Positions 6,023 through 60,165 of a stretch of 64,000 nucleotides of DNA are shown here, piece after piece. Made by a program: the position numbers and the translations under genes. Position 1 is the stretch's first letter. Every line of letters begins with the position of its first letter. Source of the DNA: Antedon mediterranea (taxonomy: Eukaryota; Animalia; Echinodermata); the NCBI RefSeq assembly GCF_964355755.1, contig NC_092675.1, forward strand, positions 14,542,912 to 14,606,911, given 5' to 3'. The notes under the pieces were generated by a model, which searched no databases, was not told where the DNA came from, and worked only from the letters and a program-made list of their open reading frames with translations.

Positions 6023-6619
6023 TGTGTTTTGATTTAACACCAACAAAAGTTAACTTTAACAAAAGTGCCTCAAGAGATTGATTACTTGAACAAAAGAATG
6101 CGAAATACAATAGAGAAATACAGTGTCCAACAACTCGTGTGTGTAACTAACCAAGCGAAGCACCCGAGATGACGTCACGGAAATATTTCTGCATACGAAC
6201 CGGAAGTAATTGAATTGCTCAAGTGGCTATTTTAAATTTGCTTTTTCGTGATAACGGCGAAATCTTAAAAGTAACGCTATGGATGAGCCGTTTTTATTAG
6301 TGTATTACTTTATATGGATTTTATTAATGTTTTAGTGACATTTCTGCTTTAAGATAATGATTACAAACGTGATTTCGTTAAATCGTGCGTAGACCGCGTA
6401 ATTTTTTATTGCGCACCGTGAAAACATAACCACATCGATTCCTGGCCATAAGGAATATTCTGTGAAAAATTGACATAGCTAGAGTAAACTGATATCAAGA
6501 TAAGGTCATAAAGCGATAAAACGCATAGTGATACCGGACCGACAGACAGACAGACCGACAGACAAACAGACCGACCGACATAGTGAACTATAGAGTCGCT
6601 TTCACGCGACTAAAAACAC

Positions 6620-7900
6620 TAAATATACGCATTTTAAATTGCTTTAAAACACGTACTTGCCTGCACTGGGCCGGGGCAAGTGGCACATTTCTGGAATGCC
6701 AGGACCATACTACGTCAATCTATAGTATTGTGAACCCGGCCCGAGGCGTCGGGGTGTGGTCATATTGCCACTTTAAAAGTGGTGCTATTAATACTTAGTA
6801 AAAAAACACTGAAAATACGCATTTTAAATTACTTTAAAACACGTACTTGCCCGCACTGGGCCGGGGAAAGTGACACATTTCTGGAATGCCAGGACCATAC
6901 TACGTCATTCTATACTATTATGAACCCGGCCCGAGGCGTCGGGTGTGGTCATATTGCCACTTTAAAAGTGGTGTTTACTAAAAAAACACTAAAAATACGC
7001 ATTTTAAATTGCTTTAAAACACGTACTTGCCCGCACTGGGCCGGGGCAAGTGATACATTTCTGGAATGCCAGGACCATACTACGTCAATCTATACTATTG
7101 TGAACCCGGCCCGATGCGCCGGGGTGTGCTCATATTGCCACTTTAAAAGTGGTGCTATTAATACTTAGTAAAAAAACACAAAAAATACGCATTTTAAATT
7201 GCTTTAAAACACGTACTTGCCCGCACTGGGCCGAGGCAAGTGGCACATTTCTGGAATGCCAGGACTATTCTACGTCAATTTATACTATCGTGAACCCGGC
7301 CCGAGGCGTCGGGGCGTGGTCATGGCCATTTTAAAAGTGGTGCTATTAATACTTAGTAAAATAACATTAAAAATACGCATTTTAAATTGCTTTAAAACAC
7401 TTACTTGCCCGGACTGGGCCGGGGCAAGTCGCACATTTCTGGAATGCCAGGACCATATACTACGTCAATCTGTATTATTGTGAATCCGGACCCGAGGCGT
7501 TGAGCGTAGTCATATTGATAATTTAAATGTGGTGTTTTTACTATATTAATGCTAAAAATACGCACTTAAAATTCATTTAAAATACGTACTTGCCCGCATT
7601 GGGCCGGGGCAAGTGGAACATTTCTGGAATGCCAGGACCATACTAGGTCAATCTGTACTATTTTGAACCCGGCCCGAGGCGTCGGGTGTGGTCATATTTC
7701 CAATTGAAAAGTGGTGTTTTTTTACTAAATTAATGCTAAAAATACGCACTTTAAATTTCTTTAAAATACGTACTTGCCCGCACTGGGCCGGGGCAAGTGG
7801 CACATTTCTGGAATGCCAGGACCATACTACGTCAATCTATACTATTGTGAACCCGGCCCGATGCGTTGGTATGGTCGTAATATCGGAACTAAAAAATGTA
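6620..7900. repeat. Tandem array of ~7 units of ~180 bp, each with an internal palindrome (acttgccc...gggcaagt)
   Basis: Repeated units are visible directly and produce the repetitive ORFs at 6583-7909. Confidence 0.9.
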
Positions 7901-8132
7901 AATCTGTGATAAAAGAGGTACATCTACACTAGATTGGTAGGTCTACTTTGGTACGAATTTGGGCCAGCCGGTCGCGATTTTTTTTTTCGTACATAAGTTG
8001 GGGACCCCATCATGAAACGTCACAAAATAAACATGAATAATTCATCAGTTAAATTTTCTTGTTCCGTGTGCACCCAAGCGTATAGCAACAAGAAGTGATT
8101 ACACAAGTGCGGTACGATTCTAGGCCTATCTC

Positions 8133-8765
8133 TACGGGGCGCCGTATGGGACATTGCTAATTTTGTCGAAATATTACAATTTTGTCTACACATAATTAAT
8201 TTTGTCAATACAAAATTTATTTTGTCAACACAAAATTAATTTTGTCAATACAAAATTAATTTTGTATTGACAAAATTCATTTTGTATTGACAAAATTTAT
8301 TCTGTGTGGACAAAATTCATTTTGTCTCGACAAAATTAATTCTGTGTAAACAAAATTCATTCTGTGTAGACAAAATTAATTCTGTGTTGACAAAATTAAT
8401 TCTGTGTAGACAAAATTCATTCTGTAACGACAAAATTCATTTTGTGGCGACAAAATTCATTCTGTAACGACAAAATTAATTTTGTATAGACAAAATTAAT
8501 TCTGTGTGGACAAAATTAATTCTGTGTAGACAAAATTCATTCTGTGTGGACAGAATTCATTTTGTGGCGACAAAATGTATTCTGTGTAGACAAAATTTAT
8601 TCTGTGTAGACAAAATTCATTCTGTGTAGACAAAATTCATTCTGTGTAGACAAAATTAATTTTGTGGCAACAAAATTCATTTTGTCGCGACAAAATAAAT
8701 TTTGTTAGCCGAGCCTACTCAAGCGTGGGACAAAACGTTTTAACATTTAAATTAGAAGGCGGGGT
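8133..8765 (+). repeat. Left TIR with an array of ~20-bp units (gacaaaattaattctgtgta-type)
   Basis: Reverse complement of ~27930-28581, including the unique inner segment gccgagcctactcaagcgtgggacaaaacgtttt...aaattagaaggcgg. Confidence 0.9.
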
Positions 8766-10520: not shown

Positions 10521-13500
10521 ATGGAAGACTCAGATGACACAATTCAGATTTCTTCAAAGGTAAAGGCATAGACAAAAACCTGCATGACAGGCTCGCATTC
10601 ATTTTTTTCCATTCCCAGTGTATTTGTTATTTTGAAAGAAGTACCTTTGTAAATTGAGTAACGATTTAAAGATGTATTTCAAAATAAATAAGATTATCAT
10701 TAGTTATCATGGATCTTTAAAATAAAAATACAAGAGAAATTGTACTGTATTCATATTTACACTCAATTTACAATTTATCAGCTTTTTAAGGAATTGCTTG
10801 AAAAGTGTTTCCAGCAGATTCCCACCCAGCCAGTGTCAGCGTCAATGCCTTTGCCAAGCAGACAGCAGACTCTCACCCAGCAGACGTCGCCATCGTCCAG
10901 GCCTTTGCCAAGCAGGCAGCAGGTTCCCATCCAGCAGACGTCAGCGTCCAGGCCTTTGCCGAGCACTGCAGCTGCTGGGTCCTCGACATCATTACAATCT
11001 TCAACATCAACGTTCGTTCCGAGAAGATTAAGGAGGCCCGCATCTTCTTTATCACGGCTTCCATCGCTGATGGAGAATAAAAATGATGAGGAAGACGACT
11101 CTGGAAATGACTTTTTACCATCGCGTCCCGGGAGTTGTAGGCAATTTGTAAGTTTTAAAAATAGTTCATAAAATCAAATTTTTCTTCATTTAATTGTTTA
11201 CCGATTTACAAACATACGCTCCACTTTCCCCATGAAACATTATTTGGAATAAAAAAGTCATTGTTGCTGTACTTATTTCTACTGTGGGCATTCCTTCTCA
11301 GCCCGGTGAAGGTTTTGTCAGCCCGGTAAAATCCGTCCCCCGCCCCGCGCCTCGCTACTGAAATCTACAGTAAGTTATTTGTTTATCCCGCTCCCACTTT
11401 TAACACAAAATGTATCTATATTTTCGTATAGCCTCCTCTTCGATTTGGATCATCCCGAAAAAGGGCACATACAGTGAAAAATGAAAGCAAAAAAAAAAAG
11501 AAGGTTTCAAAGGTTATAACTAAAGAAATAGTAATGCTACCAATGGATTCGCAAAAAGACCACAATGGAGACTACGAAGTTCCCAAACCAGAAAGAAGGT
11601 GTGATTTGATCCACCGTAAATTGGTAGCGAAAATTGCGCTCCGTCGGTCAGACTCTGCTGATGAAGTTAGGGAGCAAATGGAGTCGATATTTGGAAGTAT
11701 GGCATACACATTTCTGCAGGTAATGATAACACAAAAAAAACACAAAAAAGAAAAAAACAACAAAAAAACATGTAGGCCTATAACAAGTTACGGTACTTTC
11801 ATAATAACAATTGTGTTACAATGCGTTATATTTTGTGTTATTTTTTTAAGATACTACCTGGTAACAAAAAACTGTCAAAACCTCTATTTTCGAAAAATTG
11901 CCAGTTAAACGGCGAGACCGTTCTGTCTCTTTCACCACAAGGCAGGATCTATTCTCTGGCACTAGAAGAGGTAAGTTTCCTAATATTACTTAAACATGCG
12001 GAACGATTCAAATTAAATGAGAGGGTTTGATAGTGTTTAACAACCTCGTGGACTTACAAAATTAAATAAAAATTAAAAAAACATATTCAAATTGTAATTA
12101 CAGTACGCTTTACGTACTCGGTATAGCATTACTATTTTCTAAACAGATATACTCTGAAAAATATATAGTTGTTTATTATGTATTATGATTCTATAATTAA
12201 ACTATATTTCAGACTACAAATACTAACAAAGAAGTGTACATAACCGATGACGAACCACTAGAACCAGACAGGCTTACTGACCAACCATTGGCGTCTTCGC
12301 CTCTTGCTTCGCCATCTTCAGTTACGTTTCTGGTACGATTTTAAAGTTTACAACTGAATGTAATGTGTATTATTGTGTAGATGACTTCTAGAATAATACT
12401 GATAAGAATATAACATCATAATACAACTATTAATTCATACATTTTGAATTCATTATCTTTTATAAATTTTAGGAATCTATCAGTGAACCACCAGAACCAA
12501 GGTCACCACCACCAATAGTAAGTTCCTCTTTGTTGCGATTTTAAAGTTTACAACTGAATGTAATGTGTATTATTGTGTAGATGACTTCTAGAATAATACT
12601 GATAAGAATATAACATCATAATACAACTATTAATTCATACATTTTGAATTCATTATCTTTTATAAATTTTAGGAATCTATCAGTGAACCACCAGAACCAA
12701 GGTCACCACCACCAATAGTAAGTTCCTCTTTGTTGCGACTTTGTGTTAGAATAAATCTTTAGCCAAGTTGATTTATATTTCTATCTGAGTTATTCTGAGT
12801 TGTTTTCAATACATAAACTTCTTTTAAAGCACTTTTGCCTTTTTATGTTTTGATTTTCAAATTGTTCGATATGTTTTAATACTCTATATATAGTCAAGCT
12901 GATAAATTAGACATTGTACAACAGACTTACTAAATTTGTTTTTTATATTTCACTCGTTTTTTTAGACTTTAAGATTTTCTTAAAATGGTTTTATTACCGA
13001 GCATATGTAATTCTTATTTTTCCTTACTCTCTTATATTGATAATTTCTTTAATAGTTTAATTTTGTTTAAATCCAAATTAAGAAATATTTGTAGTTGGTT
13101 TAAGGTGCTTTGTTTTGTTGATGTTCCAGTTGACTCGTATTACTATGTATTTCGTTCTGTGAGTGACAGAATTAAAAAACGATAAAAGCTATTCATTTAG
13201 GCCTATTATCATTCCAGGAGAATGTTGAACTATCTTCGGAGCCAAGGTCACCATCTCCACCACCACCAGAACTGTCGTTTTATGTAGGTTGGGCTTATTC
13301 GACTATAAGTGATATTACTAGAGCATTATACCAATTACATTGCTAGAGTGCTTTGCTGTGTAACCAATCGATTTATATACCAGTTAATTTTTTAAATGTA
13401 CAATAAAGTTATGAAGTAATCAGTGTAGATAGTGATTATGAAAGTATAATAAAGTACAGTTTAGTATAAGGTTGGGGTAATTAATTGATCACATAGGCCT

Positions 13501-16500
13501 TATTATTAAAACATTTTACCGATTAATAACACTATATCATTTTTAAAACTATTTTAGAAAGTTTTGACAGAATATTGAATTAAAAATATACCATTACTAA
13601 ATTCCTGTTAAAGGAGACAGTTTTACGTAATAACACGTTTCTTCCTTACATCATTATTTTGTTCCTCCATGCTTACACAACGTTTTGTCATTATAGGGAA
13701 CAGAACCTTGTTCGAATTGTTGTACGACATATACAGATGAATTTGGAAACTGTCTACGTTGCAGTCAAAATGACGAATTTGCAAAATGTGCCATGGAAAA
13801 TAAGTTTAAGACTGCCTATGTTAATGCCCAGGTTAGGCGTAGATTTAACTTCTTTATATCAACTAATACGGCGTATTTAATAAAACTCAAAGTGTAACAA
13901 TAAACAATAATTGTGATTCAGTAGCATTGCATCGTAGCTTTAAACGATTTAAATAAAACCTAATAACCATCAAATTTATTAATATATTTAATTTAGTCTT
14001 GTATGTAGCAGTACTTACATTAATGCACTATTTTCCATCGCGCACGGTCTTTCAGTTCTTTTTGGTTGTTCTAACACATAAGAAAGCCAAACCCTATCTG
14101 ATATTATAATATTTTACTTTCTAACAACGGCAGAAAGAAAGAGACGATTCAATCATGAAACTGCAAGCGGAAGAAGAATCCACGAGACTGGAAGAAAGAG
14201 AATCAAGACGGAGAGAGGCCCGTCTTGCAGTCATGACAGATGAGTGTGGGAAGAATATAAAATTCAGATTTAAAAATGCACAGGCAACGCACACGTTTCC
14301 AGAAAATGCATTATACAAGGTAAAACAAAACGATAAAGTAAAACAGCCAGAAAAATTAGCAGAGCTTTCGGGCAATACTAGCCCTTCATCAGTGAGAGAC
14401 TATGATATATATGTATATATAAAAGCCGAGGTCAATACTTTATAAATTCCGTTGCAGGACTTATTCAATTACATAATGGCGCAGCCAGCATCTACAGAGT
14501 TATTCTCTGTTAGTGGACACAACTTTTTTACATCAAATAGGACTGACGTGTGTCTAGAAACACCACTTCCTTTATCGGTATTTGGGACAATTCTAAATGT
14601 GCAATGGCTTGGAGATAGGAACGACGACTCTGAAGGCCTGACCACGTAAGAAATACATTGACTCTTGTTAAAAATTGTAAATATAGAAACAGTTCACAAA
14701 ATGTTCATGTAAAACACGGCAATTCGTTTTTCGAGATAGAAAATAAAGCATACCACTAGCAAGCTAAGTAAAAAAAAAATCACTAAATTTTAAATCGTTT
14801 TCAGATATATGCAAAAGTGTGACAAACCTTATCAACATTTTTTAAAAGAAGATATGGACACATCAACTGAAAATTTCGCAGATATAGACATGTGAGTTTT
14901 TTTTATTAATGATGTACAGGCATAGATAAACACTAAACCGTCCTGAAATATGGAAAATTAGCAATAAAAAAAAACAGAATTGTACCTGAAACCTTTTGCA
15001 GTATTACTGTTATACATTAGTGTGATAATAAACTGCCAGATAATAAACACAATAAAAATAAACAAATGATACAATTTTAAATGAAAACCTAACACTATCT
15101 TTTTTTGTCATAGTGATACAAGAGATCGCCTGAGAGAGCTTTTAAAAGAACTGAAAACGAAGGCTCAGAAAGGTTATTCAAAACAACCAAATTTTGTGAT
15201 GTGCCGACGCCTTTTTGTAGTCGAAGATATTATGAGTCACTTCCAATTCCATTTACAAATTGATCCTAGTGGTAAATGGCTAGAACAGCCTTACAGAGTG
15301 AAATTTATTGGTGAGTTACAACACATTTTATGTGTGTTACACTTTCATCGACTTAAAAAAAATTGTGTGGTTGGCAAGTCGTTATTTGTATGCTTTTTTG
15401 ATTTGTTAAACTTATATACTGTACACAACTACTAATATTTAATTACATTTTAAACATTTGTTTTTCGTTGTTAAGCATGACCAGTGCATATATTTATTTT
15501 TATAAATCATATACTGTATCTTTTATTTTTTAGGCGAATCTGGAATTGATCTTACTGGTCTCGGAAGGGAGATGGCCACATTATTTTTAAATGGCCTTAC
15601 CAAATCCCACTACCTAAATTGCTCGACTCTACGAAAAAGCCAAGACATAATTGAAAAGAGGGGGTACATGGTGCTTGGCAATGTGATTGCAAACATTGCA
15701 ATTAACCATGGAATTTGCCCCGGGATCTTTGGTAAGCCAGTAGTAGCCCATCTCCTAGGTCTTCAATACCGATCTACCGACCCAAATGATGTACCGTGTA
15801 TGGAGTCGAGACAGCATCTGATTAAGGTACTGTAACTTATGGTGTGAACCAACATCTTATGTAAACATGGGCCCAAAAACAATCATTAAAATGTAATGTC
15901 GAACGTAATATGCAGATCTAAAACTGTGCATATGTTTCTTTCAAGCAGCTGTGAGTGCATTATAATCACAATTTTAAAATACTGCCTTCTATCAATAAGC
16001 TTGATAATTATTGTTTACATACATCAATTTCCAAATTCGGATGTTTATTAATCTTTTATCACGCTCTTAGATGTGTGCATCTAACACGGAGGATGAGTTT
16101 ATGCAACTGTCCAACAGTCTACCACTGGATGACTGGGGCATATGCACAAGTAAAAGAAGTGTCTGTATTGAGGACTTTCCAACTATCTTGCGACAATCTG
16201 TCGAGCAACTCGCTGTCTTAAATGTTCACACTGAACTAAGACAATTTGCAGAAGGTACAGTAATTTCTAATTAGTTCCATATTTTATTTATCAAATACTG
16301 TAAGCTCTATACTGTCACTGCGAGCTATATATAAATTGTTTCTTTTAAAATATTATTTTGTTTGTTAAATTGTTTTCACACACATAGGTAGAATTTTGTT
16401 TAACCTTGTATCTTCTTTGACATTAGCCACTAATACCCAAAACAATATTTTTCAGGTTTAAATGCATTTGGGCTATTAGACCATTTAATAAAGGATAAAC

Positions 16501-17295
16501 AGGTCGGTAGAGCATTTTTCAGCCGCCCACATGCATTGGACTCCGAGTGGTTTCTAGATGAAAACAATGTAGCATTTGAATACTCGGAAAATGGCAGTAA
16601 CCAACGAACGGAGGAGGAACAGGCACACATGGCATTTGTGCATCTGACTAAAAGTTTAGAACGTATGTAGGCCTAAATTATTAATGCAGTTTACAAAGCT
16701 TTGCTTTTCCAGTGCTGTTACTATTCAATGAATGGGGAATTATCGTCTTAGAAGGCTACTGTTGGTTAGTGACGATTGTTTGGGGAGGACGTAGGAATTT
16801 ATAGTAGGGGGATCAACAAAGACGTATTTAACATTAAGGTTTTGTACTTGATATACATTTTAAATATAACTTCCTGCATCAGATCCTCCCCACTCATAGA
16901 ATTCTTGATTGTCATGCCAAGTGTTAAATTAATGCAATGGCAGACCTACCCAGTAAGTAGGAAGTATGACATGTATCATGTAAGTTTGCTCTTATATTTT
17001 AAATGGAATGGTTAAGAAACGTGACGAGGGAAAAATAGACCTAAAAGACCTTCTACAGTTCTGGGTTGCGGTTGATGCCATCCCCCCTCAAGGACTGGGA
17101 ATGGTTTTAAAGGTCTGTTTTGTAGACGGCGTGCTACCCTCTTCCAACACATGTGCAGGGCTACTTCGTATTCCAAGACGAAGCAAAGTTGGGGAGTTGG
17201 AAGAAGCATTTAGAGAAGCTGTGATATGCAGTCCGTGCTTTGACGATGACGAAGTCGAGCCGGAAAATGACTTGTCAGCTGTCGGTCCACTTTAA
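10521..17295 (+). CDS. Multi-exon HECT-domain E3 ubiquitin ligase-like protein (~940 aa). Exons 10521-10559, 10782-11147, 11432-11719, 11851-11970, 12213-12332, 12473-12517, 12673-12717, 13218-13283, 13697-13831, 14134-14319, 14458-14645, 14805-14891, 15114-15310, 15534-15826, 16071-16254, 16456-16662, last exon ~17020/17040-17295
   Basis: Manual splicing gives GT-AG introns with consistent phase and no stops through 16 exons. HECT motifs: YRVKFIGESGIDLTGLGREM, QFAEGLNAFGLL, LLQFWVAVDAIPPQG and LPSSNTCAGLLRIP (catalytic Cys). The acceptor of the last exon is unresolved. Confidence 0.85.
12336..12738 (+). repeat. Apparently exact 200-bp tandem duplication containing a 45-nt exon
   Basis: 12336-12535 is repeated at 12536-12735; each copy holds ag|ESISEPPEPRSPPPI|gtaagt. 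Confidence 0.9.
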
Positions 17296-17633
17296 TTTTT
17301 TCTCTTAGTAAAACGAGTCTTCTGTTACACATACCGTATTAAAAAAGAGGATATGAAAGGGTTCCAAATTTACGTAGTACATACTGTTAAATATTCCTGA
17401 CTGAAATATTAAATTTCGTAGATGACGATAAAGCATAGTAAACAGCCCTAAGAAATGAAAAAAAAACCCGCTGGTGACGTCACTAGCGGAAACTTTTGTA
17501 CAGGGAACATAGGAATTTTTTGGTTAATCGTCCACTACGCCAAAACTATTTCGATATAAACTTATCCGCTTGGCAGTTTTATTCTTAAATGAATTATACA
17601 TCATAATTCGTTGAATTGAATTTCCTACCACTT

Positions 17634-17752
17634 TGTTTAGTCGCGTGGACGCGACTCTATAGTTCACTATGTCGGTCGGTCGGTCTGTCTGTCTGTCGGT
17701 CCGGTATCACTATGCATTTTAGCAGGCGACTTATGGCTGTTTGCCTTGTTTT
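17634..17752 (+). mobile_element. Short DINE-1/HINE-like repeat copy
   Basis: tttagtcgcgtggacgcgactctatagttcactatgtcggtcggtc...gcgacttatggctgtttgccttgttt; same family as 180-6615 and 59405-60165. Confidence 0.7.
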
Positions 17753-19938
17753 TTTATTGATTTAAAATAGATATACATTTAAGACGAGGATGAGACTAGT
17801 ATTCATATTGATGTTGTTGGTTTGGATATTCATAGCTAGGTGGAGGTAGTAAAGTAGTACTACTATGTAAATATTATTATGATGAATGATTGAAATATAC
17901 TGTGTCACACATTTTCGTCGTCGCATGTTGTGTGACACACAATGTCAAACACGATTCAATACGGCTGCCGTGGATATTACCGCGGGTATTTCAAATACAG
18001 TAACTGAGCGATCGGACGTACGTGTGTTTAGAACGTTCTTAAAAACCAATATGGCGTGCAAGTTGGTCGGCCATTTTTCGAAGATTTTTATTAAAAACTT
18101 TATTTATTTAAAGCTAATTTTTGTTGTGTTGCTTATTTACATTAGAAAGATTCATAATCAATTATTTATTCAATTTTTCAAAACCCTTTCATATCCTCTT
18201 TAACACTCAGTTCTACCAACTGTTCTTAATTTTATATGTACTAGCAGTTACCTGTGCTCCGCATGGTCTTTTCATTTCTATTTTCAATGGTTGCTATTTG
18301 ATTACACTAATCCGTATTTTTGTGGGAGCTGTGTGATTAATTATGTTCAGGAATTGTGACATGCAATTGCAATTTTTCTAAACGATAAAAACAAAATGTG
18401 TACATCAGAGGGAATGTTTCTAGATGCAAAACTGCCACCTAAATCATGCAAACGACCTCTTATTGGTCACACATTGTTTTCGTGTTTAACAAAATTTAAA
18501 ATTACTTGGATTTCGTTTCCTTTTTTTGTGTATGTTGTTGATTTTCCCAATTTATACATTTGTTTTAATGCTTTTGATATTTGCATTTTTCTAATTGGAC
18601 TCGTAATGTGTGCCTATGTATACCAATACCTAAATGTAGTTGCAATTACCAGACATTTCAGTTTGTAAGGAGTATATGCTGTACTATACTCTTATTTGTA
18701 TAACTATTGCAACTTTAACGTACTGATTTTGTTAAACTATATATATATTTTTTTCAACAAATTAACGTTTATTTCTTTTAAAATAACAATACAAAACTAG
18801 AATTTAATTCGTCACTTTGACAAATTATAGGTGATCATTTTTATAATTTTAATGACATTTAATTTTTAAAACGATGCACGTACGTTAAAATACGATCGTA
18901 AAATGTTGACGTAAGCCATCCTATGACCCGATTATGTATACTCTTACAGTTCTGAGTTGTGCCTATTATTGTATGTATGATTAGATAATGTAGCCTATAC
19001 AGTATACACTGTATATCTATATACAGTGTAGGATAGGTGAAATTAGGGGACCCACATTATGTTCTAATTTTTTTGGTATGATGACGTTATCAAAATAAAC
19101 TTGGACGTGACAAATTCTGAAGATTATGAATTGAGCAAAACGTTATAAGATTTAGAACAAAATTCAAATTACTGTTATTTTTTGCCTGGTTTTATATGAT
19201 AAATAAAAAAAATTACCAATACAACCTAATGACGTGTTTGAAACAATTAATTAGTAGTTGTGCTTTTTCACTAAATCTCTTTTACTTGATATACCCACAT
19301 TGGCAATTTTGATTTTGATAACTTTTCTAGTAAATTTAATTATTTTAAAACCGGTCTCTTTTTCAACAATAACTTGTACACAACAACTGCGGTATACAAA
19401 GACTGGTTTTCCAGTATTCATTACTTTAAAGCTATAAGCTACAAGCTACAGGCATTAATTTAAGATATCTTCATTTTAAACTCAAAATATTATTGTAATT
19501 TCAATTGTAACTCGCGACAAAATGGTTTGTTAACTGTTATTATAATGGAGGCGGGGCGTCTGAAATCATTTAGTTGTCATTGGCTATAGTTGTACTGTAG
19601 CAAGCGCCTTGACTGAAGAGTCGAAACCACAGCATACAGGAAGATTAAATATACTAAAAAGAGTGAGGAAATATTTCTTTAGAATAAGACAAACGGTAAG
19701 CTTTTTAAAATTTCTATAAATTTACAACCTGTTCGTTCTTAGGACTACGAACGTTAACAATATAATATATAACAATATATATATATTAACATATATTAAC
19801 AGTATAGGCCTATATATAATATTACCGCAGGCCTACATGTTCTTTAAAATTGAATTGTCTAAAAATAAATGCTCGATGTAGGCCCAATTTTAGATTGTTT
19901 AACCATCTCTAAAATTATTAATACGGTTTAATTTAGAT

Positions 19939-21198
19939 ATGGATCCGCCCGACATTAACGCCTTGCATGGTTTACTAGATGAAAACATTCCGATAACAAG
20001 AATCGCTGGAATACACAAGGTATGTATAAAATGAACGCTAAAAAAGAAAGAACACTTGCATTTGAAAAGCACTAATAAATCATAAACACTAAAAATGGTA
20101 TAGGCCTAAAGTACAATATATATATATTATGTTTCTTTTTCTGTTTAGGTGTGCAGAAAGACAATTTATAGGTGGTTGTTAAAATACGGTCTTAATTACG
20201 AGAGGTTTACAAATATATCTGATGATGAACTTGCCAACATCATTCGACATATAAAGAAGACACACCCGAACGATGGGGAAGTACTAATGGATGGCCATTT
20301 AAAAGCTAGAATTCCCCCAATTAAGATACGAAGACAAAGACTGAGAGCGGCAATACGTTTGGTTGACCCAGAGGGAGTTAAAAGGAGAAAAAGTGTTGCC
20401 ATCAGACGTCGGCAGTACTCCGTGCCTTGTCCACATTATATGTGGCATGTTGATGGAAACCATAAGCTGATAAAATACAAAATGGTCATACACGGAGGAA
20501 TAGATGGTTTTACAAGACTTGTTGTATTCATGAACATATCACCTAATAACCGAGCAACGACAGTCGAAGCCGGGTTTTTACAGGCAACTAACGAATTTGG
20601 TTGGCCCATTCGAGTACGCACTGACAAAGGCGGAGAAAACGCAATTGTATGGGACCATATGGTGTCTAAGAGAGGTGAATCTTCTGCTTTGCTTGGGAGT
20701 TCAGTCCACAACCAACCAATTGAACAGTTATGGGGGATTATAAATGACAGAGGTACTTCCCAATTCAAAGTATTGTTTAGAGACATGGAAGTTAATGGGG
20801 AGTTGGATGTTGAAAATGAAACGGACATTCTTTGTTTACACTGGGTTTTTTTACCATTAATACAAAACACATTAACTGAACTAGCGAAGTCATTAAATAA
20901 AAGAAAATTGTCAACTGAAAAACAGCGCACGCCTTTTCAGCTGGAGGCTGAATATATTCATCTGAAAAACCAATATGAGGTAAATCCAATTGCAACACAT
21001 GGTGGTGTGGACTTTCCGTACTTGGACCCAACATCACTAGAGAGGCCACTCCAGCAGGTAACGTGTGAGCAGTTTGAAGCTTTACCTGAAGAGGTCCTAG
21101 ACAACTTGCGTAATCTTGGAGAAGCCCAGACCCTCAGTCAAGGCAGAGCCATGTACAAGGGTGCTGTTCGAGTGGTCTCGAATTACATGCTTTCATAA
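19939..21198 (+). CDS. DDE transposase (integrase-core, IS3/IS481-related, IS3EU type), 2 coding exons 19939-20019 and 20149-21198, 376 aa
   Basis: The HTH IAGIHK|VCRKTIYRWL is rebuilt across a phase-0 GT-AG intron; catalytic motifs WHVDGNHKL, HGGIDGFTR, RVRTDKGGEN, GSSVHNQPIEQLW; no stops; lies inside the TIR/TSD-bounded element. Confidence 0.9.
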
Positions 21199-23124
21199 CT
21201 GCAAGATACACGCCAAATCGAGTATCCATGACGATTGCTTTCAATTTATAGACCTAACTTTGATAGCCCCTTGTTATTACTTGCAAGTATACCTGCCCAA
21301 GGACGGGTTTCAAATGTTATTTAAAACATTCCCAGTACAATTCTGATCACTTTGATACCGATCATTACCCACATAACTTTAGTATCTCCGTAATACTCAC
21401 CCACCCCTACACTTCCTAACACCAGGGAGTTGTAATTACAACTCCCTGCACTCGGGTGACTTTTTGAAGTACAGTATATTGTTTAAAACCTTCCCAGGGT
21501 TAGGTTTGTTGATACGTATTACACGTGCACCATTTGTGTGGACGCGTGTATTAGCATTATTTTGTAAAACCCAGCAAACGCAAACTTACTAATTCTGTCT
21601 CGATTTATTTACGTGGTCTGTATTAAATTTAAAATATGTTTTGTTACAAATATGTAAATTTTGTATCTGTATATGTTTATATGATTCTATATTTAAATTA
21701 ACTGTTTTTAGTTTTTCTATCTAGTTAGGTTTTATATTTACTTTTGTTTTTAGTCGCGTGAAAGCGATTCTATAATTCACTATGTCGGTCGGTCTGTCGG
21801 TCGGTCCGGTATCACTTTGCGTTTTATCGCGTTTTCTGTACTCTTTGAACTGCACGCGACTCATTACGCGGACCAGGCTACTTTAGCGTTACGTTTGGCA
21901 TCCACTGAATCAGTGGATGACCTATCCCCTCAACATGTCAATTGTGGTATAAGTTGACAGGAATAATACTCTGTGGTGTAATAAAAATGCCAGCGTGTTT
22001 ATTTAAGACTGCAAGTGTTAAGAATAACTTGCTGTCCATTTTCAACTTCCTCTTACCAATGACCAATAGCAAACAGGCACTGCTTGTCAATCAGGTCCTC
22101 ACTGACTGGGTATTAACCAATCAATTTACTATTAGATAGGTCACTGATTTTATACAATAGTTTGCGGGAAATTTTATTTCTGACCTTATACAGGAATAAA
22201 TACTTTAGTGGTTGTTTATAATCTAATCTAAATATTTCTCAATGCTGCTTTATGCAAAGCAAAGGAATTTAACTAGAACTACAGACACATTAAATAAATA
22301 CTTTTAAACATGAACAATAGTTTTGCTAGGGAATTGGGATGGCCGTGTGATATTCAATTTATTAAATTTAATGGGAAAGTACAGTATATATCTTTCACAA
22401 AATGACTTAAAATATCTTCGTATGTCATCAGGCAGCGTTTTAAAGGCCATGGAAGCCCTTTGGTCGATTTTGGGAACAAAATGGATTGATAGGCAATCAT
22501 GAGTACTTCCGAACAGTGCTATAAATGTATCACGAAAGCATATTAGTGTTTCATGTTTTATTCACCTGTTGTTGGGTGGTGGACATCTTGTAGACAATAT
22601 GTACAGCAGCAACAAACATACATAATGGATACAAATGAACACAATTTAAATTTGATAACTCTACGCGATTTTATACGAGATAAATGCGTAGACTCGGTCA
22701 TCAATGACCGTCTACTTGATAATATAAACGACGAGCCCGTGGTTGAAATTACCTGGAAGAAAATGTACAACAGAACTATTAGAAAGAATTAATCGCAAAA
22801 GGGTTAGGCCCGGTAAGCCAGATATACCATGGAGTTCAAATATCCCCCGCCATTCCTCTTGATGGATTGAGGCGGCAGGCCTCAAAGCGATTTTAAAATT
22901 GAATGGAAGCGCATCGAAAATCAATAAAAGATCTTTCTCGGAAGATTCATTGTGGAGGAAAATCTGACTTGCATGGTAGGTAGAAATCAACAGTGCCAAT
23001 AAAAATAAAATAATTAACAAATTCTTATCAGATAGATCTACGTAAATGTGTGAAGTAGGACTAAAGAGGTCTTATTTACAGTATATCAGTAGGCCTAATA
23101 TATATTCGTATAAAATATCCTAAT

Positions 23125-23615
23125 TTCCACAACTCAGGATTATGTCCATAATGATATCAATAGTAAGATTCTGTTATAGGCCTATGCGTAATTTTTTTTT
23201 ATTAAGCCACTAATTTTTCATTATCATACATTAAATTCAATTATACCATGATACATAATTCAGTGATTATTTTACAGTTATTTTCTCATTTTCCCAATTG
23301 TCTTTTCTCTTACAGGTAATAACGTGGTACGTGCTTCATGATTGATGGTAAAATTAATTTATACCTGTAACAATAGAGTATGGCAAGGCATTTCGGACCG
23401 GATGGAGTACTCCTTTAAAGTTGTCATCGGAGGAAAAGATTAGGTGGAAGAAATGCTTTCCATGGACTGCACCAGAAGTAATTTCTGGTGTCGAAGCACC
23501 ATCAGAGCACAGCGATATTTACGCGTTTGGATACATGTGCAGCCGCATATTTACCAAAACGAACAACATAAGAATTCGGGAAACTGCATGCGGCGGCCGT
23601 CACCTGCAGAGCTAG
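23125..23615 (+). pseudogene. Decayed protein kinase (catalytic loop to subdomain IX)
   Basis: FHNSG..VHNDI | intron | GNNV...IEYGKA...FPWTAPEVISGVEAPSEHSDIYAFG; frameshifts and stops are present. Confidence 0.7.
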
Positions 23616-24019: not shown

Positions 24020-25800
24020 AAAAACAGTAGCAGGATACAAAAACAGTTTCTGGGTACAAAACATTTGTAAAAAAAAATTGTTTTGTACAAAAACATTGAC
24101 TGGGTACAAAAACGGTGGTAGGGTATAAAAACAGTGGCAGGGTACAAAAACAGTGGCAGAGTACACAAACAGTGACAGGGTACAAACACGGTGGCAGGGT
24201 ACAAAGTCGATGGCAGCTGGGTAAAAAATCAGTAGCAGGGTACAAAAACAGTAGCAGGGTACAAAAACAGTGGCAGGGTACAAAAACGGTGACAGGGTAC
24301 AAAATAGATGGCAGCTGGGTACAAAAACAGTAGAAGGGTACAAAAACAGTGGCAGGGTACAAAAACGATGGCAGGGTACAAAAACGATGGCAGATGGGTA
24401 CAAAAACAGTGGCAGGGTACAAAAACGGTGGCAGGGTACAAAAACGGTGGCAGGGTACAAAAACGATGGCAGATGGGTACAAAATCAGTGGCAGGGTACA
24501 AAAATAGTGGCAGGGTACAAAAACGGTGGCAGGGTACAAAAACAATGGCAGTTGGGTACAAAAAAATGAGCAGGGCACAAAAACAGTGGAGGGTACAAAA
24601 ACGGTGGCAGGGTACAAAAACGATAGCAGCTGGGTACAAAAACAGTGGCAGGATACAAAAACAGTGGCAGGGTACAAAAACAGTGGCAGGATACAAAAAC
24701 GGTGGCAGGGTACAAAAACGATGACAGCTGGGTACAAAAACGGTGGCAGGGTACAAAAACGGTGGCAGGGTACAAAAACGGTAGCAGGGTGGTACAAAAA
24801 CAGTGTCACTGATTTTATACAATAGTTCGCGGGAAATCTGATTGCTGACCTTATACAGGAATAAATACTTAGTGGTTGTGATATTCCATTTATTAAATTT
24901 AATGGGAAAGTATATCTTTCACAAAATGATGTATGTATGTCAGGCAGTGTTTTAAAGGCTGGAAGCCCCTGGTGGAAGGGTACAAAAACGATGGCAGCTG
25001 GGTACAAAAACAGTGGCAGGGTACAAAAACGGTGGCAGGGTATATACAAAAACGATGGCAGGGTACAAAAACGATGGCAGTTGGGTACAAAAACAGTCGC
25101 AGGGTACATAAACAGTGGCAAGGTACACAACCAGTGGCAGGGTACAAAAACGGTGGTAGGGTACAAAAACAGTGGCAGGGTACAAAAACGGTGGCAGGGT
25201 ACAAAATCGATGGCAGCTGGGTACAAAAACAGTTGCAGGGTACAAAAACAGAGACAGGGTATGACAAGCAGTGGTCTAGGGTACAAAAACTTTTGTTGTA
25301 TACAAAGTGTCTGGGAAAAAAGACGATGACAGCTAGTGGTACAAAAACGGTGGCAGGGAAACAAAAACGGTGGCAGAGTACAAAAACGGTTGCAGGCTAT
25401 AAAAACAGTCGCAGGGTACAAAACAGTGGCAGGGTACAAAAATGGTGGCAGGGTATAAAAACAGTGGCAGGGTATAAAAACAGTGGCAGTGTACAAAAAC
25501 AGTGGCAGGGTACAAACACGATGGCAGCTGGGTACAAAAACTGGGGCATGGTACAAAAACAGTAGCAGGGTACAAAAATGGTGGCAGGGTACAAGAACAG
25601 TGGCAGGGAACAAAACAGTGTCAGGTACAAAAACAGAGACGGTACGACCAAGCAGTGGTCTAGGATACAAAAACTTGTGTTGTATCCAAAGTTTCTGGGA
25701 AAAAAAGAAGATTGCAGGGATACAAAAACGGTGGCAGGGATACAAAACAGTGGCAGAGTACACAAAATTGTGTTGTACTAAAACAGTGGCAGGGTAAAAA
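24020..25800. repeat. Minisatellite, ~19-23-bp unit gggtacaaaaac(a/g)gtggca
   Basis: Visible directly; interrupted at ~24805-24970 by a copy of 22140-22460. Confidence 0.95.
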
Positions 25801-27929: not shown

Positions 27930-28581
27930 AACTCCGCCTTCTAATTTAAATATTAAAACGGAGCCTACTCAAGCGTGGGACAAAATGTTTTAAAAAACGT
28001 TTTGTCCCACGCTTGAGTAGGCTCGGCTAACAAAATTTATTTTGTCGCGACAAAATTTATTTTGTCTCGACAAAATGAATTTTGTCTCGACAAAATGAAT
28101 TTTGTCTCGACAAAATGAATTTTGTTGCAACAAAATTCATTTTGTCTACACAGAATGAATTTTGTCTACACAGAATTAATTTTGTCCACACAGAATGAAT
28201 TTTGTCCACACAGAATGAATTTTGTCGTTACAGAATGAATTTTGTCTACACAGAATTAATTTTGTCCACACAGAATTAATTTTGTCTACACAAAATGAAT
28301 TTTGTCGTTACAGAATGAATTTTGTCTACACAGAATTAATTTTGTCAACACAGAATTAATTTTGTCTACACAGAATGAATTTTGTTTACACAGAATTAAT
28401 TTTGTCGAGACAAATGAATTTTGTCCACACAGAATAAATTTTGTCAACAAAAAATGATTTTTGTCAATACAAAATGAATTTTGTGTTGACAAAATGAATT
28501 TTGTATTGACAAAATTAATTATGTGTAGACAAAATTGTAATATTTCGACAAAATTAGCAATGTCACAAACGGCGCCCCGTA
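27930..28581 (-). repeat. Right TIR of the 20.4-kb element
   Basis: 20-bp array ttttgtctacacagaatgaa in reverse orientation, plus the terminal ACGGCGCCCCGTA. Confidence 0.9.
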
Positions 28582-29374
28582 TATCTCCGCTGATTTCATA
28601 ATAGAATAGCGGAGTTTTGTGTGGATTGTCGAAATAATCAGCCTTTAGTTTATGGTGTTTTTAATATAGTTTATTACTAAAGAATTACGTGTTAAAATTA
28701 TAGTTTCTATTGATACTATTAGGCCTAATTACTAGTCTCTAAACCCCTGTATATTCTAGTAGTAGTAGCTGTGTGGGTGTGTGTGACTTGTGTCTTTGGG
28801 CTATGTCCAATTACTACTTATAGTCAATGGGATTTAGGCTTTTAACTCACACAAATTGCAAGAAAAGGTTTTTTGATGAAAAGTGTTCTTTAGACCCTAC
28901 TGAACACATTTATCAACGTTAGGACATTTTTCGACAACAGGAAGTAGCCTAATTTGCATAATTAAAGATGGCCGCCATTTTTAATAACGTACTCTGTATC
29001 TTGGAAACCGCTAGTCACAGATACTTAATTATGGTGTCAAAATCGTTAGAATATATGTTTTTATATTCACTTTAATGAAAAAGTTTGTCCAAAAATGAAT
29101 GGAAGTGCTATTTCTAACATTATTGACCTTTGACCTTGATTTATCATATCTCAGCAACCACTAATCGGAGATATACAAATTAGGGCTTAAATTTAAAAAT
29201 TGTTCAGAAACTACACATTTATATCTAGTCTAATGGCATGTTTTTGCAAAAAATGGCGGATTCTAACATTATTGACCTTTGACCTTGATTTATCATATCT
29301 TAGCAACCACTAATCTGAGAGACACACAATATGGCTCAAACTGTTAAAAAACTACATATTTATATTTAGTCTAA

Positions 29375-29954: not shown

Positions 29955-30875
29955 GCGGGCCGCGATTTTTTTTTTCGTACATAAGTTGGGGACCCCTCAT
30001 GAAACGTCACAAAATAAACATGAATAATTCATCAGTTAAATTATCTTGTTCCGTGTGCACCCAAGCGTATAGCAACAAGAAGTGATTACACAACTGCGAT
30101 ACGATTATTTCTACAGTAGGCCTAGGATTCTAAGTCAATTCACGTGATTGCCTTCGCGCACTCTTCTTCACACACATACCACTATGCAAAATGTATCGAG
30201 TCGAGGCTAATCCGACAGCTAGGCAAGACATTACACTAAGTAGTAATTCATTGGACATAGCCCAAATAAACCTTAGACCCACAAGAATAAAGAATGTGTA
30301 TGATTTGTATACTTACTTTTTTTTAATTCTGCTATTTTATTATCAAACAATATGCATGTACTCAAAGGAACTTTAAAAATGCGCGTATATTTATATGAAC
30401 ACATGAGATGGGAAGATTAGACCCACGAGAATAAAAAATGTATTTTTGTGTAAGTTTATTGTTTAATTTTGCTGACTTATTACTCGGATTGTGTCATACC
30501 AACACACACACGTCACACATACCCACACAGCTACTACTAGAATAGACATGGGTTTAGAGACAAATAATTAGGCCTAATAGTATTAATAGAAACTATAATT
30601 TTAACACGTAATTCTTTAGTAATACATTATATTAAAAACACCATAAACTAAAGGCTGATTATTTCGACAATCCACACAAAACGCAGCTATTCTTCTATGA
30701 AATCGCACGCCGCAACAACAGCGGAGTCTGAGATAGGCCTAGAATCGTACCGCAATACGCTTGGGTGCACACGGAACAGGAAAATTTAACTGATGAATTA
30801 TTCATGTTTATTTTGTGACGTTTCATGAGGTGGTCCCCAACTTATGTACGAAAAAAAAATCGCGGGCGGGCGAGC
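29955..30875. repeat. Two oppositely oriented copies of the dispersed repeat that hosts the 20.4-kb element
   Basis: cgcgatttttttttcgtacataagttggggacc... at ~29960 (+), ~30865 (-) and ~7973 (+). Confidence 0.75.
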
Positions 30876-34303: not shown

Positions 34304-37300
34304 AGGAGGAGTGTTGCAGCGCCCATATGGCGGCTCTATATTGCTCTGTGCATAACAACTTCGTATCTGTTTGCAGATGGTTTTTTTCATCAAATAAGTT
34401 TTACTGGATGCTGGAATAGCAAATTGAGCACCATATATTCACAAATTTCTTATGTGGAAATAATCGTATCTTGGAGTAAATCGCAGTTGTTTTTCTTGTT
34501 GTTTCCTGAAGTTCAGCTAGGCCCTGCTTGTGCCTTTATTGTTTTAATTCAAACTCATCACTGCCCAAGAACAATGGTCTGCTAGCATCAGTGGGAAGCT
34601 AGCCCTGTACTTTCAATCTGACTGTGCATATTGTTATGTAAATGACCTTGTACACCTCATGCTTGAAGATCTGCTGTTGTCATGCTAATTAGCTATAGCT
34701 CTGAGTTTCTTCATGGTTTACAGGGCTGTGTAACCAACAACAAAAACAGTTGTGAACTTCCTGTAGAATCTTGCTTAATTATACAATCTTTTAAGTTGAA
34801 CTCCAGTAGCTGTAGTATCCACCTATTACCAAGGAGGCCAAAAAGAAAAACCAGGCGTGGTACAAGAGCTGGGCGTGACAAACACACTAAAAACAATCTA
34901 TCATTTCCGGACTTATCATCAAACTCTCTCTTATCTAAAAACAATATTAAATTTTGCAGTATTAATACAAGATCCGTTCGGAACAAAACAACAGAATTTG
35001 TGGATTTCGTTATCGAACATAATCTGGATGTTGTTGCCCTTTCGGAAACGTGGCTTAAACCAGAAGACACATCAGTTATAGGAAATATTACACCCAACGG
35101 ATACTCTCTCAAACATGCTCCCCGTGCTGGTACTAAAAGAGGTGGTGGAGTTGCACTTCTTTACAAGGAAAGCATAGCGGTTAAATGTTATGACACGGGA
35201 TTATTACCAAAATCATTTGAACTGCTAAATGTGGAAATAGTCAGCAATGCATCCTCAGTTTTCCTCGTAGCAGTATATCGTCCTCAAAGCAAATCAACGG
35301 GTTGCAGTCTAAATGTTTTCACTGAAGAATTCTCAACTTTGGTTGATCACTATGTATTGAAGCCGGCTCCCATACTATTCGTTGGAGACTTTAACATCCA
35401 TGTGGATATGCCAAATGATGCAGATGCAATTCATTTTCGGAATCTACTTGTAGCAAGCAGTCTTCAACAGCATGTGTCTACACCTACACACCGACATGGT
35501 CATACATTAGACTTGCTGATCACTCGTTCATCTGATCCTCCTGTTTTCTCAAACCTTAATGTCATTGATGGTATATCAGATCACTATGCAATCACATGTA
35601 ATCTCCTTATCAAGAAGCCACCCGTAATTACTAAATCCATCGAAACTCGTCATTGGAATGCTATAAATTTTGAGACATTATGTAAAGATATCACACAGTC
35701 TGATCTCGGAACTTCGCTCTCAAATCTTGATTTATCAAGTAAAGTACGACTATATGTCACCACTTTGAGTGAACTTCTTGACAAACACGCACCACCGAAA
35801 AAGAGAACAGTAAAGGTCCGACCAAACACTAGTTGGTATAACAGTGACATCTATGCTGAGAAAAGAACAAAGCGTAAGCTTGAAAAGAAATGGAGAATCT
35901 CTCATCTGGAAATAGATCGTCAAGCTTACATTGCACAGAAGAGGAATGTAAATTCCATGGTAAGAAAGGCAAAGGCCAACTACTACATTGGCTTGTGTGA
36001 AGAACATGCAGCAGATCAGAAAGGACTTTTTAAAATTGTTAACCAACTCCTTCATCATCGCCAGGTATCACCTCTCCCAGATAGTCTTTCTGACTTAGAT
36101 CTTGCGAACAGGTTCTGTCAGTTTTTCACAGACAAGAGCAAGATCATCAGAGACGACTTCAAGATTGATGACATGTCATTTAATGAGCCTGTGACAGCTG
36201 TTCATCAGCATCTCACAACATTTACACCAGCATCTCAAGATGAGATCCGCAACATTCTGATGAAATCACCAACAAAATCATGCAGGTTAGATCCAGTTCC
36301 TACTTCTATACTGAAGAAGTGTATAGACGCAGTCGTTCCAATAATAACGGAAATCATTAACCATTCTCTTAATACCGGCATAGTGCCAGATGAACTGAAA
36401 ATTGCTCACGTTCGTCCTTTAATAAAAAAGCAAAACTTGGATCATAACACGCTGAAAAATTACCGCCCGGTGTCGAATCTTTCTTTTCTTGGAAAGACTC
36501 TGGAGCGTGTAGTGACATCACGCATTACTCCATATCTTCAAAAGCATAATTTAAATGAGAATTACCAGTCGGCATATCGTGCATGTCATAGCACGGAGAG
36601 TTCCCTTTTAAAGGTACAGAATGATTTGTTACAAGGAATGAATGATGGGAAAATAACGCTATTGGTGTTGTTGGATTTGTCAGCAGCGTTTGATACAGTT
36701 GATCACCAAAGACTGATAACCCGTCTGAGAAATCGCATTGGCATAAATGGTGTTGCTCTTAACTGGTTCCAGTCATATCTTACAGGAAGACGTCAGCTAG
36801 TCTGTATCAATGATGCATTCTCAGATGAAGCTTGCCTGGAATATGGTGTACCACAGGGGTCAGTAATTGGGCCTGGCCAGTTTTCCATTTATACACTTCC
36901 CCTTGGTGACATTATTCGCAAACACAGTCTACATTTCCATTTCTATGCAGATGATACACAGATTTATGTGTCAGTAAATCCAGTGCAAAGGGATGTTGCT
37001 GCAGCAATCAGTAAGATGGAAGCCTGTATAGAAGATGTTCGCAATTGGATGACAACAAATTACCTAAAGTTGAATGATGGAAAGACAGAGTTTATTATCG
37101 TCGGGTCTAAATGTAACATCTCCAAAATCAACATCACACATATCAGAATCGGAAACTCTAACATCGCTCCCTCATCGGTGGTCCGGAATCTGGGAATCAT
37201 GCTGGATAGTAATCTCACTATGGAAGCACAAATAACAACTGTATCCAAAGCAGCATGCATATCGATTAGGAACCTTGGTCGTATTCGCGGTAATCTTAAC

Positions 37301-37887
37301 AAGAAAACAGCTGAATTGATTGTACACTCATTTGTCACTTCTAAAATTGACATTGGTAATGCCTTGTTGTTTGGCATACCAAAATCTCAAATACAACGTT
37401 TGCAGCGCTTGCAAAATATGGCAGCTAGAATTGTAACTTATACAAAATCAAACGCTCACATAACTCCTGTCCTGATGGATTTGCATTGGTTGCCTGTTCA
37501 ACAACGTATTAAGTACAAACTTGCGTTGTTTGTATTCAAGATCCTAAATGACAGTGCTCCTGCTTATTTATCTGACCTTGTGGATCGTTACAAATCATCC
37601 CGCAGAGGCCTACGATCATTGTCACAAAACCTTCTTCAAGAGCGTAGAGCGAAAAATCAGTGGGGTCAGAGATCTTTTTACGTTGCGGCCGCAAGTGTAT
37701 GGAACAGCTTACCAGCAACAGTTAAATGCTCAACTAGTCTAAACAGTTTCAAGACCAACCTAAAGACGTCGCTATTCGCTGATGTTCTCGCACGTTGTTA
37801 ATGCACAAAGCGCCATGAGCGCCACATGGGTGGAGGATACCGGCGCTATATAAGTTTTCATTTATTATTATTATTATTATTATTATT
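34304..37887 (+). mobile_element. CR1/L2-group non-LTR retrotransposon, apparently complete, single ORF
   Basis: Inserted between cctacacc and gtgtgtaac of a tandem unit without a TSD; (TTA)n 3' tail. Confidence 0.9.
34682..37801 (+). CDS. APE endonuclease plus reverse transcriptase (1039 aa), CR1/L2 group
   Basis: LSETWL, GDFNIH, ISDH (APE); NYRPVSNL, LDLSAAFDTVDH, GVPQGSVIGP, FYADDTQIY (RT); LHWLPVQQRIKYK C-terminus; uninterrupted ORF. Confidence 0.97.
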   Translation: MLISYSSEFLHGLQGCVTNNKNSCELPVESCLIIQSFKLNSSSCSIHLLPRRPKRKTRRGTRAGRDKHTKNNLSFPDLSSNSLLSKNNIKFCSINTRSVRNKTTEFVDFVIEHNLDVVALSETWLKPEDTSVIGNITPNGYSLKHAPRAGTKRGGGVALLYKESIAVKCYDTGLLPKSFELLNVEIVSNASSVFLVAVYRPQSKSTGCSLNVFTEEFSTLVDHYVLKPAPILFVGDFNIHVDMPNDADAIHFRNLLVASSLQQHVSTPTHRHGHTLDLLITRSSDPPVFSNLNVIDGISDHYAITCNLLIKKPPVITKSIETRHWNAINFETLCKDITQSDLGTSLSNLDLSSKVRLYVTTLSELLDKHAPPKKRTVKVRPNTSWYNSDIYAEKRTKRKLEKKWRISHLEIDRQAYIAQKRNVNSMVRKAKANYYIGLCEEHAADQKGLFKIVNQLLHHRQVSPLPDSLSDLDLANRFCQFFTDKSKIIRDDFKIDDMSFNEPVTAVHQHLTTFTPASQDEIRNILMKSPTKSCRLDPVPTSILKKCIDAVVPIITEIINHSLNTGIVPDELKIAHVRPLIKKQNLDHNTLKNYRPVSNLSFLGKTLERVVTSRITPYLQKHNLNENYQSAYRACHSTESSLLKVQNDLLQGMNDGKITLLVLLDLSAAFDTVDHQRLITRLRNRIGINGVALNWFQSYLTGRRQLVCINDAFSDEACLEYGVPQGSVIGPGQFSIYTLPLGDIIRKHSLHFHFYADDTQIYVSVNPVQRDVAAAISKMEACIEDVRNWMTTNYLKLNDGKTEFIIVGSKCNISKINITHIRIGNSNIAPSSVVRNLGIMLDSNLTMEAQITTVSKAACISIRNLGRIRGNLNKKTAELIVHSFVTSKIDIGNALLFGIPKSQIQRLQRLQNMAARIVTYTKSNAHITPVLMDLHWLPVQQRIKYKLALFVFKILNDSAPAYLSDLVDRYKSSRRGLRSLSQNLLQERRAKNQWGQRSFYVAAASVWNSLPATVKCSTSLNSFKTNLKTSLFADVLARC

Positions 37888-46225: not shown

Positions 46226-46850
46226 CTACAAAAATGAAAAAATAAATAAATTAAAATTACCTCTTATTGTAAAGTTTATTACATGCAAATAAAAAAACTA
46301 CTTGTAATTGTATACACTAGATGGTACGCTCGCTTGCTCACATACCATCTAGGTCGTTCCCACAGATGGTTCTCGAATACACTTTAAGTTCAGCGTAAAA
46401 AAATGTTTTTTTGTGTACGTACCGCAGGACTATAGGTCTAATACATTGTCGTTTACAGAAACGAATAAATAGACACAATGATTTATGTAGTCAACTAAAA
46501 TTAGCACCCTGGGAATTACAGAAACTTGTCACAAAATGAGTACAGATTTTTTATTTGGATTCATTTAAAGAAACCCAATTTGTGTTTTTTATATAACATT
46601 AGGGTTGAGGGATGGTGAGGAGGATGGGTACAAATTTTTAAATACAGTATATTCTTTATCCACTCATGTTTTTTAGGCCTATAAATAATATACCACTAAA
46701 TACAGTAAAACATTGTCATAGTCGATGAAATAGTAAAATACAAATAAACGACACACCACTACAACGTTTATATTTGTTGTAATTATTAATTAATACAAAC
46801 AATGAGAAGCAACTGTCAGTAATAAAGTTTATTTGTATATTATTATGTGC

Positions 46851-59404: not shown

Positions 59405-60165
59405 AACAAGGCCAACAGCCATTAAGTCGCGTGCTACAATGCATAGTGATACCGGACCGACAGACAGACAGACAGAGAGACCGACCGACCGACCGACATA
59501 GTGAACTATACTGACCGAAATTACTGAACATGTTTAAAAATGTTGAAATGTTTAAAAACATTTTTTTTTTTTTTATTTACACGTGCGTAGCCTGTCACTT
59601 TCGACGTGCTCGTATAACGTAATTTCGAGTTGAAAATTAAGTCAAGAAAACAGAAATCGGGCAAAAAGAGTGCGCAATAACATTTAACGCGCAGTGCGCG
59701 CGCAAAAATATGCGCACTCATGGCAATTTTGTAAACGCTTAAAATTGCCTGAAATATACTCTTATTTCATCGAAAATAAATTTTGAAAATGTTAAGCGCG
59801 CGTACGCATGCGTTACATGCGCTATGCACGTAATTGTATTGCCATATGATGATTTATGCCCTGAAATTTATGAGTACCAAATTTTATTTAATTGTGATTC
59901 ATGGTTGTGAAGATATGATTACAAACGTGATTTCGTTAAATCGTGCGTAGACCGCGTAATTTTTTATTGCGCACCGTGAAAACATAACCACATTGATTCC
60001 TGGCCATAAGGAATATACTGTGAAAAATTGACCTAGCTAGATTAAACTGATATCAAGATAAGGTCAGAAAGCGATAAAACGCATAGTGATACCGGACCGA
60101 CAGACAGACCGACAGACCGACCGACCGACATAGTGAACTATAGAGTCGCTTCCACGCGACTAAAA
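59405..60165 (-). mobile_element. Uninterrupted DINE-1/HINE-like element
   Basis: Near-identical to 180-705 plus 6353-6615; absent from the opposite TIR arm at ~62400-62420. Confidence 0.75.

Follow-up and report, generated by a model that had tools for sequence, protein, structure and literature searches.

A 64,000-nucleotide (nt) stretch of contig NC_092675.1 from the echinoderm Antedon mediterranea (the window, whose positions are used throughout) contains an IS3EU/GingerRoot DNA transposon of 20,449 bp (8133–28581), within which lie a gene for a DDE transposase and a separate, many-exon gene for a predicted 949-residue HECT ubiquitin ligase with catalytic Cys903. The element opens on the forward strand with a terminal inverted repeat (8133–8748) that begins TACGGGG and consists mostly of 20-nt tandem units, and closes with its reverse-strand counterpart (27983–28581), which ends CCCCGTA; the target-site duplication TATCTC adjoins it on the left (8127–8132) and on the right (28582–28587). 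The two inverted repeats are 88.4% alike over 620 alignment columns, with 58 of the 60 terminal nucleotides identical. At both ends (8150–8740 and 27990–28560) 20-nt units, partly palindromic, are set in arrays and likely serve as repeated binding sites for the transposase. We rejected the idea that each array is a small element in its own right: a single 6-bp duplication encloses the pair, and the terminal 13-mer occurs within the window only at the two element ends. Furthermore, the host repeat next to the element recurs at 30488–30864 (minus strand), and this second copy spans the insertion site without the element; 155 of 162 aligned letters agree in this comparison, with three indels, one of which adjoins the site.

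These features match those of described relatives. TA..TA ends and 6-bp target duplications define IS3EU/GingerRoot (PMC10045372), and fungal IS3EU elements end in TAYGG..CCRTA (PMC12730594); the Antedon element has TACGG..CCGTA, a 6-bp duplication and an integrase-like DDE core with the H-x-D-x-NHKL motif. Its ends differ in being built of repeats over about 620 bp, as against 100–150 bp in GingerRoot. The transposase is encoded on the forward strand by two exons (19939–20019 and 20149–21198; 376 residues; Pfam rva_4, E 7.4e-57), with catalytic residues D129, D186 and E219. By eye, its motifs are like those of IS3EU-1_CVi and IS3EU-4_DR, and its core resembles the NHKL-type IS3EU cores in the supplement of PMC10045372. 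Just before the catalytic Glu, in HNQPIEQLW (20707–20733), stands a Pro where all 13 of the IS3EU cores visible have Arg or Lys, possibly an inactivating change and a sign of decay. A metagenome scan with the transposase as query returned no loci. An earlier note on this DNA had read the ligase as transposon cargo, and its gene does lie between the paired ends and their 6-bp duplication; it is very probably the IS3EU element's own HECT gene.

The ligase gene occupies the forward strand. Between its start codon (ATG at 10521) and 16662, 15 GT–AG introns separate sixteen exons that splice into 852 codons free of stops; an in-phase chain of 16 exons had been proposed in the earlier note, and all the peptides it quoted appear in the spliced product in the same order. 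When a GT or AG within 30 nt of each site was chosen at random, none of 20,000 draws gave a stop-free chain. In leave-one-out splice scoring the modelled site ranked top at all but one of the 16 donors and all but one of the 15 acceptors, and GC content is 43% in the exons as against 28.5% in the introns. Exons 1–2 (10521–10559, 10791–11147) encode a low-complexity N-terminus rich in Ser, Pro, Gln and Thr (S/P/Q/T; residues 1–132), and exons 3–4 (11432–11719, 11851–11970) a Lys run followed by an unnamed globular domain. A Pro/Ser-rich linker is spread over exons 5–8 (12213–12332, 12473–12517, 12673–12717, 13218–13283), of which exons 6 and 7 are identical; their source is a 99% identical 200-bp tandem duplication (12331–12730) that doubles a 45-nt phase-0 exon. 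Exon 9 (13697–13831) holds a four-cysteine (C4) motif, and exons 10–11 (14134–14319, 14458–14645) a charged stretch and then a hydrophobic segment of about 77 residues. Exons 12–16 (14805–14891, 15114–15310, 15534–15826, 16071–16254, 16456–16662) comprise a linker, a pre-HECT region and a putative, divergent HECT N-terminal lobe, and exon 17 (17003–17295) the HECT C-terminal lobe, a 17-residue acidic tail and the stop. The start of intron 10 (14317–14394) also matches 48465–48389 in inverted orientation (93.6% over 78 nt).

The HECT assignment rests on the last exon, which alone matches the Pfam HECT family (E 1.1e-6; 28.9 bits against a cut-off of 23.9) at the C-terminus of the protein; all ten of its matches among Protein Data Bank (PDB) sequences are HECT ligases, the best at E 0.0098. 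Cys903 (codon at 17152), in the motif LPSSNTC, aligns with the catalytic Cys of the E6AP active-site motif, and Phe932 follows 29 residues later with 17 residues after it. In E6AP, Phe849 likewise lies 29 residues past Cys820 (PMC6463701). The earlier call of a HECT-type ligase with a catalytic Cys is upheld by a Pfam score above the cut-off and a Cys in register with E6AP; its placing of the domain end at LPSSNTC is not, since this Cys, at position 903, is followed by a further 46 of the 949 residues. Upstream, exon 14 gave a HECT match below the cut-off (E 0.039, 14 bits, profile positions 13–81), exons 13, 15 and 16 scanned singly gave none, and no HECT match to exons 12–16 appeared among PDB sequences. 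Homologue searches with exons 14 and 17, both weak searches, found nothing.

The last splice junction is damaged in this copy. Exon 16 ends in phase 1, and 17003 is the only in-frame start for the last exon with a typical acceptor context, a pyrimidine tract; starting there, exon 17 completes the 949-residue protein. The AG that should precede it (17001–17002) is replaced by AA. Contigs of four public runs were compared over 16400–17400 only, and in both runs that cover the site (X1 and X3; two samples from two studies) 17002 is G, which restores a canonical in-phase acceptor. The last junction is doubtful because this copy reads AA where X1 and X3 read AG. Other copies or alleles therefore carry a normal 17-exon gene, and the change here is a splice mutation or, possibly, an assembly error. 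Acceptors at 17017 and 17029 were rejected because they shift the frame. The other in-frame AG acceptors, at 16985, 17039 and 17048, score −7.9, −19.3 and −10.4 against 1.2 for 17003; that at 16985 is not below the weakest site of the gene itself (−8.7), and cryptic splicing may occur there. Splicing of the catalytic exon is probably impaired in this copy, which would cripple its ligase.

The same contigs offer a limited view of variation at the ligase gene. Intron 16 also holds insertions of 27 nt and of 1–2 nt in X1 and X3, and the contigs of X1, a run guessed to be RNA, continue through this intron with no splice joints in the compared interval. Against X3 we count 3 differences in 466 exon positions and 8 in 340 intron positions (Fisher p 0.06), a weak sign of selection on the ligase. 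One X1 contig (depth 4.4) has A at 16663, the intron 16 donor, reflecting another damaged copy or an error. Two forms of 16672–16731 coexist in X3, one at depth 116 and the other at 423, which hints weakly that a single sample contains several copies. Directly after the ligase stop, at 17333–17337, loose ends with inverted termini in the X2, X3 and X5 contigs indicate that another small element has inserted at this point in other copies; 5 nt are missing here from X1.

The N-terminal part of the ligase combines low-complexity sequence with one globular domain. Ser, Pro, Gln and Thr make up 46% of residues 1–155, and a Lys run at residues 152–157, a possible nuclear signal, stands ahead of a globular domain (about residues 161–262) flanked by two S/P/Q/T-rich stretches. 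The low-complexity N-terminus described in the earlier note holds for residues 1–155; the globular domain of exons 3–4 had been missed, and about residues 156–268 are not low-complexity. A repeat profile from an unrelated protein aligns across the exon 3/4 junction at 36.0 bits, where the best of 500 shuffles reached 6.5. The family to which the domain belongs has neither a name nor a Pfam entry; several hundred eukaryotic proteins contain relatives of it (clusters of 179, 97 and 171 members), and an unnamed 2,095-residue protein (P0002) consists of 12 tandem copies of it, with no Pfam family. A low-confidence model of a homologue makes a beta-grasp, ubiquitin-like fold likely; Foldseek with that model matched nothing at E 0.001, and the top of its ranking was taken by folds other than ubiquitin. 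One of four matches (P0001) was dropped as a tandem-repeat protein without credible likeness, a weak search with one P0002 repeat found no homologue, and a metagenome scan with P0004 returned no loci. The N-terminal exons match no chromatin-reader or other Pfam domain. Exon 9 reads C365-x2-C368-x10-C379-x2-C382, a Cys spacing that makes a zinc ribbon likely; it has no match in Pfam and no relevant one in the PDB.

The segment encoded by exons 10–11 was the basis of the earlier proposal of a UBX-like p97 adaptor. Residues 406–445 are 55% Asp, Glu, Lys and Arg, and the order of a charged helix, hydrophobic strands and a short helix resembles that of coil–UBX proteins. A single-sequence model of exon 11 (predicted local distance difference test score 54) begins with helix, strand and strand and ends in a helix with no fifth strand; it is too poor to interpret and found no structural match. 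UBX domains bind p97 through an R...FPR signature (PMC5389986), as in the cofactors FAF1, p47 and UBXD7. The pattern [FYW]P[PR] is absent from residues 406–525, as are the R...FPR and YPP-type loops and the VCP-interacting motif (VIM) pattern; the sole FP follows directly on the second predicted strand, and its next residue is Glu. Exons 10 and 11 scanned singly matched no UBX family or structure, and an Atlas search with exon 10 gave no usable match. These results do not support the adaptor claim; the likeness of the segment to UBX is one of pattern alone, although it may still have a ubiquitin-like fold.

Downstream of the transposase lies a protein-kinase-like remnant (22547–23612, forward strand), possibly a third gene of the element, broken by stops and frame changes, part of which (23358–23612) matches Pfam PK_Tyr_Ser-Thr below the cut-off (E 3.5e-4). 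The element further holds an array of 19/22-nt units (24020–25800) with copies of 22140–22215 and 22346–22458, and a short interspersed repeat at 17636–17753 and 21733–21838 with relatives near 176–260, 6510–6627, 59405–59510 and 60065–60166. Beyond it are a 1,044-residue frame with endonuclease and reverse transcriptase of a long interspersed nuclear element (34667–37801) and a Penelope-like pair of reverse transcriptase and GIY-YIG in two frames (46806–48160).

What might such a ligase do for a transposon? Our preferred reading, held tentatively and at less than probable, is an element-serving nuclear ligase that tags the element's own transposase, present here as a splice-damaged copy. The HECT ligase would act in the nucleus to the element's benefit, taking ubiquitin from a host ubiquitin-conjugating enzyme onto Cys903, while the exon 3–4 domain, the C4 motif and the exon 10–11 segment would dock the substrate. 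Ubiquitin chains on the transposase would either limit its dose or lead to its clearance once strand transfer is complete. The p97 of the host would be recruited through ordinary chain-reading cofactors and not by UBX-type contact, since the FPR loop is missing; direct docking of p97 is less likely for the same reason. By reasoning, we favour the transposase because no other partner is sure to accompany the element to every new site, and even so regard it as a plausible substrate, short of a probable one.

Host silencing comes close behind as a target. If the ligase degraded a silencing or chromatin factor of the host, the element would stay expressed, and a fast-diverging HECT domain with several modular docking domains would fit such an arms race; the exon 3–4 domain recurs in tandem in P0002 as interaction modules do, and the TET/JBP genes of fungal IS3EU elements have been proposed to help them escape silencing (PMC12730594). 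However, nothing among the family matches of the N-terminal exons indicates a target, and this account is on the whole a possible but somewhat doubtful one. It is unlikely that the gene is a passenger, a captured host HECT gene drifting without benefit to the element and possibly catalytically dead. Gene fragments are frequent in GingerRoot elements (PMC6839031), the kinase remnant in this element has decayed, the acceptor of this copy is damaged and the HECT domain of mammalian G2E3 is dead (PMC3673628). Yet the whole 17-exon frame is open, the catalytic Cys and the Phe are in register, the acceptor is kept in other copies, and weak searches found no close host-type relative. Very unlikely, finally, is a fusion of ligase and UBX adaptor that would itself bind p97 and in this way extract the transpososome, as ClpX acts on MuA: the coil–UBX-like order, the helix–strand–strand start of the exon 11 model and the loop-free binding of p97 by the UBX-like domain of NPL4 (PMC5389986) speak for it, but R...FPR, YPP-type loop and VIM are all lacking, neither exon matches UBX, and the exon 11 model, which matches nothing, has a final helix in place of the fifth strand.

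Among known ligases, the closest parallel is with the class IV divergent HECT ligases, G2E3 and GL-Metazoa (PMC3673628), which are also animal proteins with a highly divergent C-terminal HECT domain and unusual N-terminal modules. G2E3 has three N-terminal RING/PHD-like zinc fingers, whereas the Antedon ligase has one C4 cluster and retains its catalytic Cys; no PHD/RING triplet was matched by Pfam in the ligase exons scanned. The strings 'transpos' and 'UBX' do not occur in the accessible text of PMC3673628. Among transposons, ubiquitin-system cargo has precedent because Helitrons carry VTD/OTU deubiquitinases (PMC9741609) and Zisupton carries an F-box gene (PMC12062965). The Helitron enzymes remove ubiquitin and the Zisupton F-box borrows the host cullin, whereas the Antedon gene, spliced separately, is predicted to encode a self-contained catalytic ligase. 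The cargo described for fungal IS3EU elements, TET/JBP and an alpha-kinase (PMC12730594), differs from the HECT gene of this 20.4-kb element. 'HECT' and 'ubiquitin' do not appear in the main texts of PMC10045372, PMC6839031 and PMC12730594, nor 'HECT' in the main text of a fourth IS3EU/GingerRoot paper or in the supplement of PMC10045372, and no HECT cargo in IS3EU or any other DNA transposon was found in the full-text literature, a search that left Repbase Reports and Kojima's 2019 review outside its reach.

The locus touches on two open questions: what takes eukaryotic transpososomes apart, and by what means DNA transposons weaken the defences of their hosts. If the ligase reading is true, some divergent animal HECT genes would be re-labelled as mobile cargo. 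More boldly, and in our estimate improbably, animal IS3EU elements would be machines made of two genes: a dedicated HECT ligase, docking through a pair of ubiquitin-like domains, would ubiquitinate the transposase, and the p97 and proteasome of the host would dismantle the transpososome. Such elements would also be the source of divergent 'G2E3-like' animal HECT genes. Were this so, IS3EU would encode for itself a eukaryotic counterpart of ClpX acting on MuA.
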